This document shows, in pieces, positions 15,391-34,332 of a stretch of DNA of 64,000 nucleotides. This stretch comes from Giardia intestinalis. Taxonomy: Eukaryota. The notes beneath the pieces were generated by a model. That model was not told the origin of the DNA. It saw only the letters and a list, made by a program, of their open reading frames with translations, and did no database searches. Position 1 is the stretch's first letter. The number at the start of each line of letters is the position of its first letter. Both the position numbers and the translations under genes were made by a program. The stretch is from assembly GCA_000002435.2 (NCBI GenBank), contig CM018793.1; one strand, given 5' to 3'.

Positions 15391-15618
15391 CGACCACGAG
15401 TGCCTCGGCAGCTTAAGTAAAGGGTCAGAGCATTGTAAGACGGCAAACGTCACAAGGTAAGACGGGCGGCCGTCGTCCTCAAGATAGGTCGCTCCCAATC
15501 ATCATATCTCATACGAATGGATCGGAGGGCGATGAATTTCAAAGTCTAATTCCAATTCTAAATAGATGACTCCAGCTGTAACCTTTACAGCGTCACATGG
15601 GTCGGGTCTTGGAACAAT

Positions 15619-25989: not shown

Positions 25990-28797
25990 CTAGATATTCA
26001 GCGCCTCCATAGCCTTGGCGAGGACCAGATCTTCTTCTGGCGTCAGGGAACAGTTCGCAAGCTCTACCAACGAAGGGATATCATGTTCACCTTCGACAGA
26101 AGGGATTGAGCTAGTAGTCGGATTGTGGGAAACATAGGTGTAGCTAGGGGGTAGGAATCTCTCATGAATGTGCTGGTAAGTTGGAGGGATTTCCCCCTCT
26201 TCCAGATTAGAAAAGGTTTCTTCCCGCATGTCAGGCGTAAATAACCCTCCTGCAATATAGAATGGTTGGTTAGGGGACAGATAGGAGGACGCATGCTGTA
26301 AGGACCCGCCCATAATGGATGAGTCGCTGTGGTAGTGCTGAAAACGCTCTGGTGTGTCACTGACAGCGGAGACAGAGTGCAGGTCCATGATGTTATTTAC
26401 GCACGAGAGATAGCTGAGATCAGAAGGCGTTTTGGGAACAGGCTTGGCGACTATTGGAGCTCCGCTGGGACGAAACGGGTGGGCAAGAATGGCCTGAACT
26501 TCTTCCCGACTATCTATAGAGTGCTTTTCAGAGGGCTGTGCTTGATGCGGTGTAACCTTTTTTGAAACGTTAGGAACCTCCTGTTGAATGGAAGCAGAGT
26601 TGTAGGCAGGCGTTGATATAGGGGGTGACAAGTCCTTTACTGTTCGTGGAGGAAGCCGCCCCCTCGTAGAGTATGGAGTGGAGCTAGGTGTGCTGTCAAT
26701 ACATGCACTACTCTTCTCTCGTGAGAGTACGAAAAGGACTTCGTTATAATCTGTACTATCAGGGTCCTGAATCGTAAAGCCGCTAGCGTTATAATTCAGA
26801 TCTACTGTAGGTGCAATATGATTAGATGCATGGGCCAGATTATCAGCAATTGGTGTGTTAGAGGCAGGGGCTACTTCAGGGCGACGGATAGCTGTAACGA
26901 TTATCTCTTTAGCTTGCGGTCCTGACTCTTTTGCAGATGTTCTTTTCTGCGCTATAGTGTGCTGGAGGCGTGTTATTTGATGAGCATGGACCGGCTCGCC
27001 AGTACAGTTATCTTCGTATGAGTGTTGTGGAGCTGCTTGGTGAACAACTAGCTGAGCAGAGGGAAGTGATGCTTCCAGTGTGATATCTTTTGGAGCAATC
27101 CTGGTAAGAGAGCTTCTATGTAGATAGTTCAATTGCGGCTCTAAGGAAGGTGAGTCGCTGGGAGGAGGCTGTGCATCTACCTGCTTCAAAGCCTCAGAGG
27201 CACACTCTATTGGGTGATTACCTGATAATATCCCAGCCTTATGTTGGCATTTCCCACAAGGGGCGTATTTGGTTACATATAAAGGATAATTGGCAAGGTC
27301 CTTACCCAGAGATAGCCACTTTACCTTTTCATTGCTATCCTCAGAATAACTAGAATAGTAATATGACGAAGAGCTGCTCTCTGTACTAGAGGATCTTTTG
27401 GAGCAGGGCTTTTTGCTTGATCTTCTCTTAGACTTCGTGCTAACTTTTGGCTTGGCTGATGTCTGGGTCGTAGATATAGATTGATCAGTTTTAGAGTTAG
27501 ATTCCCTGTTAGAGTTAGAGAATGTAACCGACGAGAGATGCTCATTCGCTTGTCCAAAACATGGCGTCAAAACGCTGGCAGGTTGAGACAATCTGTTTTC
27601 TATATCATAAGCGTTTTTCATCTGTTGTGCTCGAGCAGCTATCTCTGTCATTTTATCTGGAGCCTTATCCAGCTTCTCTTTGTGTTGTCTTAGTATGGCT
27701 TTTTGAATGAGAACACTCAGCGGCTCTGGTTCCTGCTTATCGTTATAAGAATTTTTGACTGAAACAATCTCCACGATATCTGGTGATGTAGCGGATTCAT
27801 TTGGATTTAGTTCCCGCTGATCAATTGAAGGAGCTGACTTAGCAGATGGCATCATAGGTAGTAGCTCTGGTTTAGAAATGACAGGAATGATACCAGAAGG
27901 TACAATAGATGGAGAACTTGTGGCGCGATCGAAGTAACTCGGCTGAATAGCTGCAGGTGCTGGTATCCGATTGGCTAAAACTGTTCTTGTTATGCTCAGT
28001 ACTTGTCCAGCACCAGTGGGTAAAGGTACAGTTTTCGTGTCTCTATCTACATGTGCTATGACGCCAGGGAGATCTACACTATCATTGCTGAAGGACGATA
28101 AAGTCTCCTGTATCCCAGCCTTGTTCAAAGCCGGTGATATCGCATATGGAGGTGGAGTTTGATTGGGTGCATGTGGAAACATTCTACCAGGAGGTGTATG
28201 CGCGTTAAGGACCTTACATGAGGTCTCATTATTCTCGGCAAGACTTTCCCCCGCGGTGGGAAGATACTTAGCGGTAATTGGCCGCTGAAATTTCGTATCT
28301 AGTACATCGTGGTGATTGAGGTGAACAGAGGGGGCAATATCCTCTGGTATCTTGTCTGCTGGCTGACGCGTCTTGTTGTGAGGAACAGCAAGAAGCTCTA
28401 ATGGACCAGCTCTATAGTGTTGATGCCACGGAGGCAAGTTTCCAGCAGTTCTAGCTATTGAGATATCAACCACTGCATCCGATATCCCAGAATTGTCTTG
28501 AGTCATAGTGTGTCTGGGAGCGATGGGTGACATAGATGAAACTGTTCGTAATGCTTGTGAAACAGCACTTTGCGCAGAATTACTTACAAGATCTGCCTGT
28601 ATCCGTCTTGAAATTAGATCAGAGAGGGTTGTTGTGGGAGAACTATGGATGTCATGTAGATCGGGTTCTGGACTTGTCGGTTGGCCTGATAAGGAAATTG
28701 TGTGCACAACAGATGCTACCACAGGATCTGAAGATTCGCTGAGGGATGGAGTGTTCGTAAGCCTTGGCCGTGTGCGTGCTAAAAGTCTACTTGACAT
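25990..28797 (-). CDS. hypothetical Ser/Pro/Thr-rich protein (935 aa)
   Basis: ATG verified (cat at 28795-28797) with an A-rich upstream sequence. It converges on the 24565 gene with a 9-nt gap. Low complexity, no named domain. Confidence 0.6.
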   Translation of the reverse strand: MSSRLLARTRPRLTNTPSLSESSDPVVASVVHTISLSGQPTSPEPDLHDIHSSPTTTLSDLISRRIQADLVSNSAQSAVSQALRTVSSMSPIAPRHTMTQDNSGISDAVVDISIARTAGNLPPWHQHYRAGPLELLAVPHNKTRQPADKIPEDIAPSVHLNHHDVLDTKFQRPITAKYLPTAGESLAENNETSCKVLNAHTPPGRMFPHAPNQTPPPYAISPALNKAGIQETLSSFSNDSVDLPGVIAHVDRDTKTVPLPTGAGQVLSITRTVLANRIPAPAAIQPSYFDRATSSPSIVPSGIIPVISKPELLPMMPSAKSAPSIDQRELNPNESATSPDIVEIVSVKNSYNDKQEPEPLSVLIQKAILRQHKEKLDKAPDKMTEIAARAQQMKNAYDIENRLSQPASVLTPCFGQANEHLSSVTFSNSNRESNSKTDQSISTTQTSAKPKVSTKSKRRSSKKPCSKRSSSTESSSSSYYYSSYSEDSNEKVKWLSLGKDLANYPLYVTKYAPCGKCQHKAGILSGNHPIECASEALKQVDAQPPPSDSPSLEPQLNYLHRSSLTRIAPKDITLEASLPSAQLVVHQAAPQHSYEDNCTGEPVHAHQITRLQHTIAQKRTSAKESGPQAKEIIVTAIRRPEVAPASNTPIADNLAHASNHIAPTVDLNYNASGFTIQDPDSTDYNEVLFVLSREKSSACIDSTPSSTPYSTRGRLPPRTVKDLSPPISTPAYNSASIQQEVPNVSKKVTPHQAQPSEKHSIDSREEVQAILAHPFRPSGAPIVAKPVPKTPSDLSYLSCVNNIMDLHSVSAVSDTPERFQHYHSDSSIMGGSLQHASSYLSPNQPFYIAGGLFTPDMREETFSNLEEGEIPPTYQHIHERFLPPSYTYVSHNPTTSSIPSVEGEHDIPSLVELANCSLTPEEDLVLAKAMEALNI

Positions 28798-29124
28798 TTT
28801 TTAGATATCCAGAGCAAGATGCCGAGAGGTATCTTAGAAGATGCAACTAGGTTACTGATGAATGGCTTAGGGGCTTGCGTGCGCCTGCTGAAAAGGATAG
28901 GTACTTGAAGCCGTCCAAATTTTCAAATTGAAAGAAATATTCTTGATGCTGACATACGTTTGCAACTTATAGAATAAGCGTGCACGAACATATTGATGAA
29001 GTAGAGGAACAACTGTGGCTAATGCCTTGTTGTGAAAACTAATCGGTATCGAACAGATGACTGGACAACAAAACCTATCGTACTTGGCAACCTATTCTCA
29101 CGCTAACCAGCTGGACACGTGACC

Positions 29125-29786
29125 AACAACACTGGCAGCAACTTGGAGTGCCGGGAGTCGAACCCGGGTCGTAACCGCATACGTAGTTGATAGCCATGCC
29201 ATCAAAGGCCACTGTGCTCCCGCTGCACCACACCCCACGGGGAAGGGCAGCAGCGTAAACGTGTGTGTGTCGTACTTGGAAGTGGAGGGACGCGGATAGC
29301 ACTGGTTGCTCAGACGTGGGGGCTCACCGAGGGTAGCTGGCCAGCCCTCATCGCCCCAGCTCCCCCCACCTCACTCACCGGCCGGCCTGCTGTGGAACCC
29401 AGGTGACCGCGACTGTAGAGCACTGCCCGGGACACAGCCGGACGGACACCGAGGGGCCCAGCCAGCGGAGGGCCCGATGGCAGACGGGGCATCTAAAAAG
29501 GACGGCGACCAGAGCTTCACCCACCGTGAAGGGAGACCAAGGAGAGGCGCCACCGGTAGAGCAGAGGGTCTGCGAGAGGACCCGAACCCCTAAAGGACCG
29601 ACGTGCACACTCGGACCGAGTACACCTCTGCGGAGCGACCAGGGAAGGTGCCAGGTTTTAGATATACTAAAAGAGAGGAGCTCCTCGTTATATCATCCAC
29701 AACCAGCCCTCGTCTCCGGACACGACCACAGGAGCGAGACTTACTCCTGGGATTTCTGGGTGCCCCTACAGGTAATCCCAACAGCA
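29125..29786. repeat. left arm of a perfect 662-bp inverted repeat flanking the VSP gene
   Basis: Base-by-base reverse complement of 31991-32652. Checked at both ends and mid-arm. All six-frame ORFs in this arm are mirrored with identical protein sequence on the other arm. GC-rich (>60%). Confidence 0.9.
29144..29237 (-). other. tRNA-like 94-nt module (mirror copy of 32540-32633) at the outer end of the left repeat arm
   Basis: Reverse complement of the right-arm element described under 32540-32633. Confidence 0.3.
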
Positions 29787-30100
29787 CAGCGCTTCTTCCC
29801 GTCCAGGCAGCTCTTGTGAAGAGCATCGGTCCAGTTTCATAGCAGTGGGTGCATTCATTATTTGAGTGGACCATTCGTGGGGTGATGGCTACTGTCGTAA
29901 GCACCGGTGATGTGCGAGGGGCCGTTCTTGAGATGCCACAACGCCCATTCTCTCCTTGGTCCCTAGAGACACCACACACAGGAGAGGCCGCTAGGACACC
30001 AGAGATCCGCTACACCGGGGTAAGCCTGTAGGGTGCACATTATCCTCACTCACCACGTGGCAGCGTCGCCTGGTGTTGCGTGCTCTATGGGCTGCCGGCA

Positions 30101-31948
30101 ATGTTCGAGAAAATCATCTTCGGAATCGCCATCCTGCAAGTGGTATGGGCAGCAACGACATGCACAGAGGCTAGCAGTGACCCGCAAACAGGACAGTGCG
30201 CAACAGGAAAGTGCGACGTCTGGATTGGGGGCTCAAACTTCTGCTCCCAGTGCTCGACAGCAGCAGAGCATCTTATCAATGGAAAATGTGTGCCTGAAGG
30301 TGAAGACACTGAAGGAAAATGTACAGCAAAGAATGATGGCACATGTGAATCTTGTAAAGCCGGCTTTTTCCTGCACAGAGGAGGGTGCTACGAGATGGGA
30401 AGCGATATCGGGCTCCTTGTGTGCAACGATAGAACTGCCACGGCTGATAAGGATGGAATATGCATAGCTTGCCACGACGGGTACTTCAAGAATCCTGCAT
30501 CTGACGCTGATAAAACGAAGGAGTCCTGTATTGCATGCAACAACACGGCCGGCGTGGATCATAATAAGGGGGTTCAGAACTGTGCGACGTGCGACGCCCC
30601 GAAAACTCCCGGACAAAGCAGTGCAGAACAGACGGCCACATGTAAAAGCTGTGTGGACGGATACTATGGCACTACAAGCTGTCAGCAGTGCCATGCAGAT
30701 TGTAGAACGTGCACCGGCAACGGTGAGGATAAATGCACCTCCTGCAAGGATACTGGTAAGCAATACTTCAAAGAAGGGGCCAATAGCGACGGGACAGGCA
30801 CGTGTGTTGACGAAAACGGATGTGGTAACACACACTTCCCAATAGCAGAGGACAAAAAGTGCCATCTCTGCGGTAGTGTCAGTGAGGGCGGTGTGGCCGA
30901 CTGCAAGACGTGCTCAAAGACTGGAGATTCCGTTAAGTGTCTTACCTGCGAGGGTACTAAAAAACCCAATGAAGCCGGAACAGGCTGCTTTGTGTGTCCC
31001 ATGGAGCATTGCGAAAAGTGCAGTAAGGACAACGTCTGCGAAGCTTGCGGATCAGAAAAGAAGCTGAGCCCCTTGGGAGACGCGTGCTTAGATGCCTGTC
31101 CCGCGGGAACTCGCACTGACGCTAACGTTTGTAATCTGTGCCACGAATCGTGTGCAAGCTGTAGCACTAACGCAGAAGCGTCGTGCACGGCCTGCTATCC
31201 AGGGTATGTGTTGAATCGGTCATCTGATGACACAGGAACGTGCATAAAAGAGTGCACGGGAGACTTTATGGCCCACTGCAAGGCCGACGGCTGCTCACTG
31301 AACGTCGGAGGCTCGAAGTACTGCGATCAGTGCGAGGAGGGGTACGCCCCAGTCGACGGCGTTTGCACATCCATACCTGCAGCAGCGAGGGATGCCTCCG
31401 GATGTAAGGCAAGTGGCGGGAAATGCACTGAGTGTGGAGCAAACTACGCTCTGTTATCGGGCGGATGCTACAACACACAGAAGCTTCCTGGTAGCTCTGT
31501 GTGTACGGCTGCACAGAATAAGGGACAATGCCAAACGTGTGCCAATGGACAAAGCCCAGCTGGAAGAAAATGTCCGGCGTGTACTGAAGGATGTGTGAAG
31601 TGTGCGGGTAGTAAGGAAACCTGCACAGATTGCTTAGCAGGGTATTACAAAGATGCCGGTGATAAATGCTTCAAATGCACGGATAGTGATAAGGCTAGCT
31701 CTAATGCAATAACTGGTGTAGAAAACTGCATAAGCTGTGCCCCGCCAGCTGGTGGCAATGGCCCTGTCACCTGTTACGTAACGCAACAAAAGGCTGACGA
31801 TGGCACCGGCGGAGATACTGGAGGAGACAGCACGAACAGGAGCGGCCTCAGCACGGGGGCCATAGCAGGGATCTCCGTCGCTGTCATCGTCGTGGGGGGC
31901 CTCGTGGGCTTCCTCTGCTGGTGGTTCATATGTAGAGGGAAGGCGTGA
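30101..31948 (+). CDS. vsp: variant-specific surface protein (VSP)
   Basis: The track ORF starts with GTG at 30080; the first ATG is at 30101 (MFEKIIFGIAILQVVWAA signal peptide). Cys-rich ectodomain with dozens of CXXC motifs and a GGCY motif. C-terminal TM GAIAGISVAVIVVGGLVGFLCWWFI followed by the invariant CRGKA tail. Confidence 0.9.
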   Translation: MFEKIIFGIAILQVVWAATTCTEASSDPQTGQCATGKCDVWIGGSNFCSQCSTAAEHLINGKCVPEGEDTEGKCTAKNDGTCESCKAGFFLHRGGCYEMGSDIGLLVCNDRTATADKDGICIACHDGYFKNPASDADKTKESCIACNNTAGVDHNKGVQNCATCDAPKTPGQSSAEQTATCKSCVDGYYGTTSCQQCHADCRTCTGNGEDKCTSCKDTGKQYFKEGANSDGTGTCVDENGCGNTHFPIAEDKKCHLCGSVSEGGVADCKTCSKTGDSVKCLTCEGTKKPNEAGTGCFVCPMEHCEKCSKDNVCEACGSEKKLSPLGDACLDACPAGTRTDANVCNLCHESCASCSTNAEASCTACYPGYVLNRSSDDTGTCIKECTGDFMAHCKADGCSLNVGGSKYCDQCEEGYAPVDGVCTSIPAAARDASGCKASGGKCTECGANYALLSGGCYNTQKLPGSSVCTAAQNKGQCQTCANGQSPAGRKCPACTEGCVKCAGSKETCTDCLAGYYKDAGDKCFKCTDSDKASSNAITGVENCISCAPPAGGNGPVTCYVTQQKADDGTGGDTGGDSTNRSGLSTGAIAGISVAVIVVGGLVGFLCWWFICRGKA

Positions 31949-31955
31949 CTTAGGT

Positions 31956-31962
31956 AGTAAAC
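31956..31962 (+). terminator. putative poly(A) signal AGTAAAC 7 nt after the VSP stop codon
   Basis: AGTRAAY-class motif just downstream of the TGA at 31946-31948 and 29 bp before the right repeat arm. Confidence 0.45.
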
Positions 31963-31990
31963 GCGTCACCGTATATGGCTTATTGCACTA

Positions 31991-32652
31991 TGCTGTTGGG
32001 ATTACCTGTAGGGGCACCCAGAAATCCCAGGAGTAAGTCTCGCTCCTGTGGTCGTGTCCGGAGACGAGGGCTGGTTGTGGATGATATAACGAGGAGCTCC
32101 TCTCTTTTAGTATATCTAAAACCTGGCACCTTCCCTGGTCGCTCCGCAGAGGTGTACTCGGTCCGAGTGTGCACGTCGGTCCTTTAGGGGTTCGGGTCCT
32201 CTCGCAGACCCTCTGCTCTACCGGTGGCGCCTCTCCTTGGTCTCCCTTCACGGTGGGTGAAGCTCTGGTCGCCGTCCTTTTTAGATGCCCCGTCTGCCAT
32301 CGGGCCCTCCGCTGGCTGGGCCCCTCGGTGTCCGTCCGGCTGTGTCCCGGGCAGTGCTCTACAGTCGCGGTCACCTGGGTTCCACAGCAGGCCGGCCGGT
32401 GAGTGAGGTGGGGGGAGCTGGGGCGATGAGGGCTGGCCAGCTACCCTCGGTGAGCCCCCACGTCTGAGCAACCAGTGCTATCCGCGTCCCTCCACTTCCA
32501 AGTACGACACACACACGTTTACGCTGCTGCCCTTCCCCGTGGGGTGTGGTGCAGCGGGAGCACAGTGGCCTTTGATGGCATGGCTATCAACTACGTATGC
32601 GGTTACGACCCGGGTTCGACTCCCGGCACTCCAAGTTGCTGCCAGTGTTGTT
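31991..32652. repeat. right arm of the perfect 662-bp inverted repeat flanking the VSP gene
   Basis: Reverse complement of 29125-29786. The first mismatches are at 31990/29787 and 32653/29124. Confidence 0.9.
32540..32633 (+). other. tRNA-like 94-nt module at the outer end of the right repeat arm (possible tRNA-derived element or 3'-processing signal; not a canonical tRNA)
   Basis: Acceptor stem TGGGGTG (32540-46) pairs with CACTCCA (32627-33): 6 Watson-Crick pairs plus 1 G-U. T at position 8. D-arm GTGC / AGCGGGA / GCAC. Perfect T-arm CCGGG / TTCGACT / CCCGG. The candidate anticodon arm GTGGC / CTTTGAT / GGCAT (anticodon UUG) has one G-G mismatch. It is followed by a 28-nt insert before the T-arm. 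Confidence 0.3.
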
Positions 32653-33045
32653 TTCGCCGCTTAGTTTCCCTTGCTACCGCACGTCCACCATGCTGGCCGT
32701 CCGTGCATGGTTGGGACGATGGGTGTGGCTGCATAGGGTGCTAATGCACGGGGGCAGCGGCTGCCCAGCCGGCTGGTCTGTAACCTCACCAACCATGGAA
32801 CATGCGATCTTCTTTACACTAATAATAACATAGCATGAGCCCTTACTTTCCAGCCCCAGATTTAATGCAAAGGCACTCTGATATGCTCGACATTTCTTGT
32901 CTCATAGCTGTGTTAGGAGCTATCATTAGCTAAAAGGTATTACCGCTTGAATACGCCTTTCTCCTGGAGTCTCTTGATATAGATTTAACCCGATCCAGTA
33001 CAGCCGTTCAAGTTGATAGTTGTATCAAATCAAAAAATTTTTACT

Positions 33046-34332
33046 ATGGATGCTTTTGCATTTGAGGATCTGGCATCGTTTGATCTCATTAAGGCTATTT
33101 ACAAATATGGTTTTGAAATACCGTCTCCAGTACAACAATACTCAATCCCAAAATTGATTCAAGGCCAAAGTATCAGTGTCAATGCACAAACTGGCAGCGG
33201 GAAAACTGCTGCCTTTGGAATCTCTTTGCTGTCATTAGTGAATCCACAAAAATCAATCTGTCAAGCAGTGATTATCTCGCCAACCAAGGAATTGTCCAAT
33301 CAGACATTAGAAGTAATAAATACTCTGGGTACTCGGTCAGGCATAAGGGGTGTGTGTCTCACAAGTGGAGTGATGGCGAAGGAACAGTTTGAGAAGATCA
33401 CAAAGGGTAGCGCTCACTTTGTCTGCGTGACCCCAAAACGTCTGAGTGGTTTATGTGCAGCCATACAGCTCTCAAAGCTCCAGTTAGTAATATTGGACGA
33501 GTGTGACAAGCTCCTAGAGGAGCAGAGCTATCGCGGGGTTGTCTCTTTTCTACGAGACCTGGCACCAGAGACAATCATAGGATGCTTTTCAGCGACCGCC
33601 ACCGATATATACAAACGAACAATTAAGGAGCTCTGCCCAGCAATCAACCACATCAGCATAGTACCAAAGCACAGCAGTGTAACAGCTATTCGCCATGTTT
33701 GTATCCGCATTTTCAACTACACAGATGCTGACGTTGAAAGGGCTGTCTCTCATAAGCAGAAACAAGACCAACTTAAGACTGAAGATAGCGATGACTGGCT
33801 AGAGCCTCGAATTAAACGTCGATCAAGACGGAAATCATACAAAGGATTGCAGGCTCTTGACGAAGACAAGAATGACATGGGCTCATCAAAAGAGGAAATT
33901 TATGCCGAAAAGGTTAGAGTATTGTCGAGTCTTCTGGAGTCAGTACCTATCGTTCAAGGTGTAATTTTCTGCAACTCCAAACACACCGTTGATTGGTTAC
34001 ATAACGCTCTTCGCAAGCAAAAGCACCCGTGCGAGCGGATACATGCGGATCTTCCTGCATTTGATCGTGAAACAACGGTTGCAAATTTCCGCGCAGGAAA
34101 GACACGACTGCTTATCAGTACAGACCTGCTTGCACGCGGATTTGACGTTCAACAGGTGACTTTTGTGTGCAACTATGACTTTCCTCGTGATCCACACTCT
34201 TATATGCATCGGGCTGGGCGGTGTGGCAGATTTGGTCGCAAAGGGTTGAGTGTCTCCCTACTTATAGCAGAGAATCAGAAGTGCATGGACGATGTGGTTC
34301 AGAAGTACAAGATCGAGGTAGAGACAATCTAG
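33046..34332 (+). CDS. DEAD-box family ATP-dependent RNA helicase, DECD variant (UAP56/Sub2-like pattern)
   Basis: The track start at 33013 is TTG; the first ATG is at 33046 (MDAFAFEDL...). Q-motif/motif I AQTGSGKT, Ia PTKELSNQ, TPKRL, II DECDKLL, III SAT, V LISTDLLARGFDV, VI HRAGRCGRFGRKG. Length is 428 aa. Confidence 0.85.
   Translation: MDAFAFEDLASFDLIKAIYKYGFEIPSPVQQYSIPKLIQGQSISVNAQTGSGKTAAFGISLLSLVNPQKSICQAVIISPTKELSNQTLEVINTLGTRSGIRGVCLTSGVMAKEQFEKITKGSAHFVCVTPKRLSGLCAAIQLSKLQLVILDECDKLLEEQSYRGVVSFLRDLAPETIIGCFSATATDIYKRTIKELCPAINHISIVPKHSSVTAIRHVCIRIFNYTDADVERAVSHKQKQDQLKTEDSDDWLEPRIKRRSRRKSYKGLQALDEDKNDMGSSKEEIYAEKVRVLSSLLESVPIVQGVIFCNSKHTVDWLHNALRKQKHPCERIHADLPAFDRETTVANFRAGKTRLLISTDLLARGFDVQQVTFVCNYDFPRDPHSYMHRAGRCGRFGRKGLSVSLLIAENQKCMDDVVQKYKIEVETI

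Follow-up and report, generated by a model that had tools for sequence, protein, structure and literature searches.

The window, a 64,000-nt stretch of DNA, belongs to Giardia intestinalis assemblage A and is matched at 99-100% by contigs from public Giardia read sets. Two divergently oriented genes, one encoding a protein of 935 aa (25990-28797, minus strand) and the other a DEAD-box helicase annotated as eIF4A (33046-34332, plus strand), bound an intergenic region in which a single VSP gene is enclosed by the two arms of an inverted repeat (Table 1). The arms are 668 nt long and identical at 666 of these positions, the only mismatches falling at 31987 and 31990. A tRNA-like module occupies the outer end of each arm and points outward, with 18 nt of its 3' trailer still inside the repeat, and upstream of it lies an arm body of 555 bp with 62% G+C. 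This is the arrangement that had been read from the letters alone: a module at the outer end of both arms, facing away from the VSP gene, next to a G+C-rich body of roughly 560 bp. Because both tRNA copies sit in one inverted repeat, they have to be counted as one observation.

Each repeat junction is found again in many independent read sets, where contigs break off exactly 30 nt inside the arm; contig ends are expected to behave in this way at a repeat boundary, and both outer junctions are therefore real. Two short-read contigs of 100% identity (L003 and L004) begin at 32325, within the arm and not at its boundary, and cross 32652 unbroken, a hint that the ~215 bp next to the tRNA may also exist as incomplete copies elsewhere in the genome, or that strains differ in the repeat. 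An AGTAAAC motif (31956-31962), a poly(A)-type signal of the VSP gene, lies 8 nt past the VSP stop codon and ~580 nt upstream of the tRNA, and exact look-up of the VSP protein, both from a start at 30098 and from the ATG at 30101, found neither version on record. Elsewhere in the window (15423-15522, minus strand), the Giardia box C/D snoRNA GlsR13 is matched over its full length at 129.5 bits against a gathering score of 100.

Table 1. Positions of the inverted repeat, the enclosed gene and the predicted tRNA features in the window
Feature	Position	Strand	Basis or remark
Left arm of inverted repeat	29125-29792		
Right arm of inverted repeat	31985-32652		
VSP gene, the only one between the arms	30101-31948	+	ORF list; ends CRGKA
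Inner arm, putative VSP 3'-flank module	31985-32429		Fast-evolving; common to another VSP locus
Predicted tRNA-Gln(UUG) gene, right copy	32540-32634	+	RF00005, ARAGORN, spliced-form calls, cloned small RNA
Acceptor stem, right copy	32540-32546/32627-32633	+	
D arm, right copy	32549-32563	+	
T arm, right copy	32610-32626	+	
Discriminator base A, right copy	32634	+	
Predicted tRNA-Gln(UUG) gene, left copy	29143-29237	-	Scores and sequence as for right copy
Anticodon TTG, right copy	32572-32574	+	Rfam alignment; ARAGORN on spliced forms
Anticodon TTG, left copy	29203-29205	-	Rfam alignment; ARAGORN on spliced forms
Candidate intron (25 nt, canonical 37/38), right copy	32576-32600	+	Constrained folds
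Candidate intron (25 nt, canonical 37/38), left copy	29177-29201	-	Constrained folds
Alternative intron (13 nt)	32576-32588	+	Constrained folds
B-box-like Pol III promoter element GGTTCGACTCC	32613-32623	+	Exact match to consensus GGTTCGANTCC
T4 run, possible Pol III terminator	32651-32654	+	+17 from right copy; straddles repeat boundary

Cloverleaf and anticodon of the arm-end module

The sequence-only reading had drawn a tRNA-like cloverleaf at both sites and named covariance models as the way to check it. The Rfam tRNA model RF00005 scores 43.2 bits at each copy against a gathering score of 29 (E = 7.7e-6 in the 64-kb window), and the bounds on which Rfam and ARAGORN agree, with the discriminator base counted (32540-32634 and 29143-29237), lie within 1 nt of those first drawn. 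The elements then described are all present. The acceptor stem has 7 bp (TGGGGTG/CACTCCA), one of them G-U; T stands at position 8; the D stem of 4 bp (GTGC/GCAC) closes a 7-nt loop (AGCGGGA); and the T arm reads CCGGG-TTCGACT-CCCGG. The acceptor, D and T stems thus have the 7, 4 and 5 bp that a cloverleaf requires, and sequence and Rfam alignment together place the conserved bases U8, A14, G18G19, U33, a purine at 37, T54-T55-C56 and A58. Folding stability relative to shuffled sequences is unremarkable (z = -0.44), so that the evidence for a tRNA is carried by the covariance model and not by thermodynamics. No other Rfam family came near its threshold within 32400-32760 (E <= 10) or 29100-30110 (E <= 1). 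The acceptor stem begins with U1-A72, G2-C71 and G3-C70 (32540-32546/32627-32634), a start that would be nearer to bacterial tRNA-Gln than to the G1-C72 of yeast and human tRNA-Gln.

What sets the module apart is its anticodon arm. Read contiguously, it runs GTGGC/CTTTGAT/GGCAT with anticodon TTG, and its stem contains a G.G mismatch, meaning that the gene lacks an uninterrupted 5-bp stem with a 7-nt loop, as would be expected if an intron were present. The extra bases that accompany this defect lie 5' of the T arm and number 25 in the Rfam alignment, or 27-28 when variable-loop bases are included, in keeping with the 28 originally counted. The sequence of the arm and the UUG anticodon were correctly read at the outset; the parse that went with them, combining a G.G-containing stem with a 28-nt variable region, turns out to be the least stable of those folded (-26.5 versus about -34.5 kcal/mol). 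Two further identities came from ARAGORN applied to the unspliced sequence: tRNA-His(atg) in its default mode (bacterial, no introns) and tRNA-Ala(tgc) with a 4-nt intron when introns were allowed. Each call requires the D and anticodon stems to be separated by 2-4 unpaired bases, and both were set aside as artefacts that arise when the insert is pressed into a long variable arm.

Gene class, expression and the alternatives to a working tRNA gene

Taken together, each site is very probably a genuine nuclear tRNA-Gln(UUG) gene with a short intron, doubled by a VSP-associated inverted duplication. Such genes are already known in Giardia. In strain WB, tRNAscan-SE reported five intron-containing tRNAs, four Gln-TTG and one Tyr-GTA, next to an isotype table with three Gln-TTG genes and two predicted pseudogenes overall (Franzen et al. 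2009, PMC2723961 Text S1). Comparison with Giardia tRNA-Gln and tRNA-Tyr had rightly been suggested from the sequence. One of the four Gln-TTG calls was apparently flagged as a pseudogene, and four intron-containing calls set against three non-pseudogene genes leave WB with no intron-free UUG gene. The GS isolate has six Gln-TTG genes with introns and one further in unassembled reads (PMC2723961 Text S1), together with one intron-free copy (PMC2723961, PMC3091692), and P15 has five intron-containing tRNAs. The long-read WB assembly lists 65 tRNAs versus 63 before, with 'more duplicated copies' (Xu et al. 2020, PMC7000408). As these papers give counts and not coordinates or sequences, the present locus is assigned to the published Gln-TTG class from its anticodon, its intron and its copy number; the class itself is already catalogued, and the match of this locus to the published calls is made by inference.

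Is the gene expressed? The B-box consensus is GGTTCGANTCC and that of the A box TRGCNNAGTGG; the former is matched exactly (Table 1), and the A-box region, TGGTGCAGCGG, comes close to the latter. In the left copy a T4 run first appears at +70, and the run downstream of the right copy is not conserved, being replaced by GCTTTC in contig L001 (ENA ERZ28528424; L001:2159-2164). A published small-RNA cloning study contains a 26-nt sequence, TGGGGTGTGGTGCAGCGGGAGCACAG, recovered in 5 clones and labelled 'Gln-tRNA', which equals 32540-32565 exactly and has its 5' end at the predicted RNase P site. An RNA end at 32539/32540, which the sequence-only reading had anticipated, would thereby be on record, and the clone agrees with transcription and 5' processing at 32540, although a different Gln gene that begins with these 26 nt could have given rise to it. 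The main text of the sitRNA paper does not mention Gln. CAA codons are common in the adjacent genes (9-22 per gene), and their frequency, combined with the lack of an intron-free UUG gene in WB, means that the intron-containing class would have to supply the decoder.

It could be argued that both copies are decayed tRNA-Gln pseudogenes, carried along by a VSP-associated duplication and giving rise to no working tRNA. The genomic anticodon stem is indeed imperfect, each mature model has its blemish (a 3-nt variable loop, a C.A pair with a long arm, or a G.G pair), the Rfam score of 43 bits is moderate, and tRNAscan-SE flags two pseudogenes in WB, where the Gln-TTG intron count exceeds the isotype count by four to three. 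However, every WB UUG gene has an intron, so the class must function; no flaw is seen in the acceptor, D and T arms or in the B box; a processed 5' fragment that matches has been cloned; and the tRNA has been kept at the same locus in a divergent assemblage (see below). With this evidence on the table, decay of both copies is improbable. The earlier verdict that the module is 'not a canonical tRNA gene' falls with the same observations, given that the module passes the tRNA model, fits the published Gln-TTG class and coincides at 32540 with the start of a cloned Gln-tRNA.

A second possibility is that the module serves primarily something other than decoding, either mascRNA-like 3'-end processing of an arm transcript or insulation of the VSP cassette by tDNA boundaries, and both ideas had been raised at the outset. 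The processing idea does not fare well: the mascRNA-menRNA model (RF01684) scores 13.3 bits against a threshold of 42.5, with E = 7.1 and agreement in the T arm only, and the VSP gene has its own AGTAAAC signal far upstream of the tRNA. The arm contains no other known RNA family, and no tRNA accompanies the homologous 3' flank of a second VSP gene. In yeast and mammals tDNAs serve as barriers, and two outward-pointing tRNA genes do bracket a single VSP gene here, an argument from position, with the bracketing geometry being what was seen; yet a boundary role would add to the role of a tRNA gene, not replace it. A primary role outside decoding is accordingly very unlikely. A third early suggestion, a tRNA-derived mobile element or SINE, is countered by the completeness of the cloverleaf, by its location at the outer, 3' end of the arm, where a SINE would have its tRNA-related head at the 5' end, and by its trailer, GTTGCTGCCAGTGTTGTT, which is no tail, A-rich or LINE-like; direct repeats or target-site duplications flanking the unit are absent.

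The insert and its predicted removal

If the sites are tRNA-Gln(UUG) genes, what are the extra bases? That they are retained, producing a 95-nt class-II-like tRNA-Gln with an unusual extra arm, is extremely unlikely: the Rfam model does put 25 nt in the variable region and inspection found no canonical anticodon-intron pair or bulge-helix-bulge, but this parse is ~8 kcal/mol less stable, a 4-bp D stem with a short 7-nt D loop is typical of class-I tRNA, the 12 unpaired bases followed by a 4-bp hairpin are unlike known long variable arms, a GS copy without the insert exists, and tRNAscan-SE handles the insert as an intron.

In the folding models, the extra bases instead appear to act as a pre-tRNA intron would. 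With folding constrained, a 25-nt intron reaches -34.4 kcal/mol, one of 13 nt -34.5 and the parse with no intron -26.5, the unconstrained minimum being -34.5 kcal/mol. In both the unconstrained minimum and the canonical-intron parse, 32572-32579 pairs with 32583-32590, joining the anticodon region to the insert in an 8-bp helix, and pairing of the intron with the anticodon is a classical feature of eukaryotic pre-tRNAs. When the insert was excised in silico in four ways (37-61, 37-49, 43-66 and 37-42 in tRNA coordinates counted from 32540), ARAGORN called tRNA-Gln(ttg) for all four products.

The two main candidates share their 5' site and differ in what they leave behind. Removal of 25 nt produces a perfect 5-bp anticodon stem (GUGGC/GUUAC) with two G-U pairs, and its 3' site falls in a 10-nt single-stranded stretch beside the stem; the same excision leaves a variable loop of only 3 nt (GAC), unusual for a cytosolic tRNA, and position 32 faces intron position -3 as C.U, a pair that is not formed. 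Removal of 13 nt leaves 31:39 as a C.A pair and gives a body with class-I D-arm features an extra arm of 15 nt, and its 3' site would lie inside a helix. Neither a bulge-helix-bulge motif nor a pair between position 32 and intron position -3 was found by eye, and string searches of the literature for possible spliced junctions, for the insert and for the 3' part returned no matches. On these models the 25-nt intron may be favoured over the 13-nt one, at a confidence that is roughly even.

The expected pathway, taken from general tRNA biology, would begin with transcription by Pol III from the internal A and B boxes, followed by RNase P cleavage at 32539/32540, trimming of the 3' trailer and addition of CCA. 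The splicing endonuclease and a ligase would then excise the insert, most likely the 25 nt at 32576-32600, just 3' of position 37, and the end product would be a 70-nt class-I tRNA reading CAA (and CAG). That Giardia must process intron-containing UUG RNA in some way follows from the absence of an intron-free UUG gene in WB. The insert is atypical in its isotype, in lacking the canonical anticodon-intron pair and, if spliced at 37/38, in the 3-nt variable loop left behind. An intron-containing UUG pre-tRNA would nevertheless offer a simple substrate for the study of intron recognition in a minimal eukaryote.

Origin of the duplicated arms and comparison with known systems

How did a tRNA gene come to stand at both ends of a VSP cassette? 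A search with the arm ORF had only one useful match, contig L015: the inner ~445 bp of the arm (31985-32429) share 74-76% identity with the 3' flank of another VSP gene there, and this second flank has no tRNA behind it (L015:1286-2015 versus window 31733-32429). Judged by this similarity, the G+C-rich arm body would be a recurring VSP 3'-flank module. In contig L001, whose flanking genes are 99.0% identical to those of the window, divergence shifts abruptly within the arm (L001:1481-2158). The inner ~425 bp (window 31985-32410) are only ~85% identical and the enclosed VSP gene is a mosaic with 64% protein identity, whereas from ~32410 outward the sequence is identical (~240 bp to 32652), tRNA included. 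By its evolutionary rate the tRNA therefore belongs with the conserved flank and not with the VSP unit; this conservation cannot speak for constraint, given that the flank around it is itself 99% identical.

Other lineages extend the picture. Among helicase orthologues from other assemblages, every short-read contig ends 118-420 bp upstream of the gene, and only L018, in which the helicase is 84% identical, keeps the end of the tRNA: its first 16 nt, CGGCACTCCAAGTTGC, comprise the final 10 nt of the tRNA and 6 nt of trailer and lie ~300 bp upstream of the helicase gene, after which the contig diverges at once. In G. muris and another distant Giardia (L014:7833-11263 and L029:1-3267), homologues of the two flanking genes are adjacent, divergent and merely 3-14 bp apart. 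Since the homologues abut there, the 4.2-kb intergenic tRNA-VSP-tRNA insert is specific to the G. intestinalis lineage. In JGI metagenome contigs, neither a two-part exon pattern with 8-38 nt between the parts nor the tRNA 3' end plus trailer found any match (0 in each case), and the three open frames that cross the tRNA likewise gave 0 matches in a protein-word search.

The simplest history compatible with these sequences might comprise four elements. The ancestral state would be a tRNA-Gln gene upstream of the helicase gene; a VSP gene and its 3' flank would have come to adjoin it; the segment made of 3' flank, tRNA and 18 nt would then have been copied, inverted, to the far side of the VSP gene; and the arms would since have been homogenised by gene conversion, unless the duplication is recent. 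That the arms end in a tRNA would mark where the duplication stopped, 18 nt past the tRNA, and points to no special function of the fold. The locus is a concrete case of how a tRNA gene can multiply: tRNA-Gln(UUG), alone among Giardia tRNAs in its variable, inflated copy number, stands beside a VSP 3'-flank module and is copied with VSP-associated inverted duplications. For tRNA biology as such the gain is small, as the gene class has already been counted in three Giardia genome papers.

The same comparison raises the question of whether the cassette can turn around. In L001 (1-2158) the helicase-side tRNA and arm are joined to the 5' side of the VSP gene, placing the cassette opposite to its orientation in the window (29125-32652), and the arm variants 31987 and 31990 stay with the end of the cassette, in line with what recombination within the arms predicts. 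This suggests cassette inversion by recombination between the arms, or else a choice made by the assembler across a 668-bp repeat; a short-read assembler cannot reliably phase an inverted repeat of that length, which makes the L001 orientation a lead only. The broader proposal that the arms make the VSP gene an invertible cassette, with the outward tDNAs as fixed boundaries of a VSP chromatin domain, is a long shot. Antigenic variation in Giardia is currently regarded as purely epigenetic or post-transcriptional, and an invertible cassette, if true, would add a component at the level of DNA.

Several known systems resemble parts of this locus. As in mascRNA and MEN-beta, a tRNA-like fold lies 3' of a longer sequence; unlike them, the module has a full anticodon arm and a B box, passes the genuine tRNA model and fails the model of that family. 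The pre-tRNA introns at 37/38 (yeast and vertebrate tRNA-Tyr and others) are likewise short inserts just 3' of the loop purine that pair with the anticodon; in contrast, Gln is not a usual intron-bearing isotype, the pair between position 32 and intron position -3 expected from yeast and Xenopus is absent, and the variable loop would be 3 nt. The identical inverted VSP pairs are, like the present repeat, near-perfect inverted duplications at VSP loci whose arms stand a few kb apart, and their flanks are identical until they diverge abruptly 139-729 bp from the coding region (Adam et al. 2010, PMC2996952; PMC7000408). In those pairs, defined by two ORFs head-to-head or tail-to-tail and 2-4 kb apart, the VSP ORFs are themselves the arms, whereas here the arms are non-coding, consisting of VSP 3' flank and tRNA, and the one VSP ORF lies inside, with none in the arms. 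The word 'tRNA' does not occur in the description of the pairs (PMC2996952), and the tRNA surveys cited make no link to a VSP-flanking inverted repeat. The closest relative remains the Giardia Gln-TTG class itself (PMC2723961; Jerlstrom-Hultqvist et al. 2010, PMC3091692), which shares with the present gene the organism, the anticodon, the insert and the occurrence in multiple copies, and from which it differs in nothing substantive.
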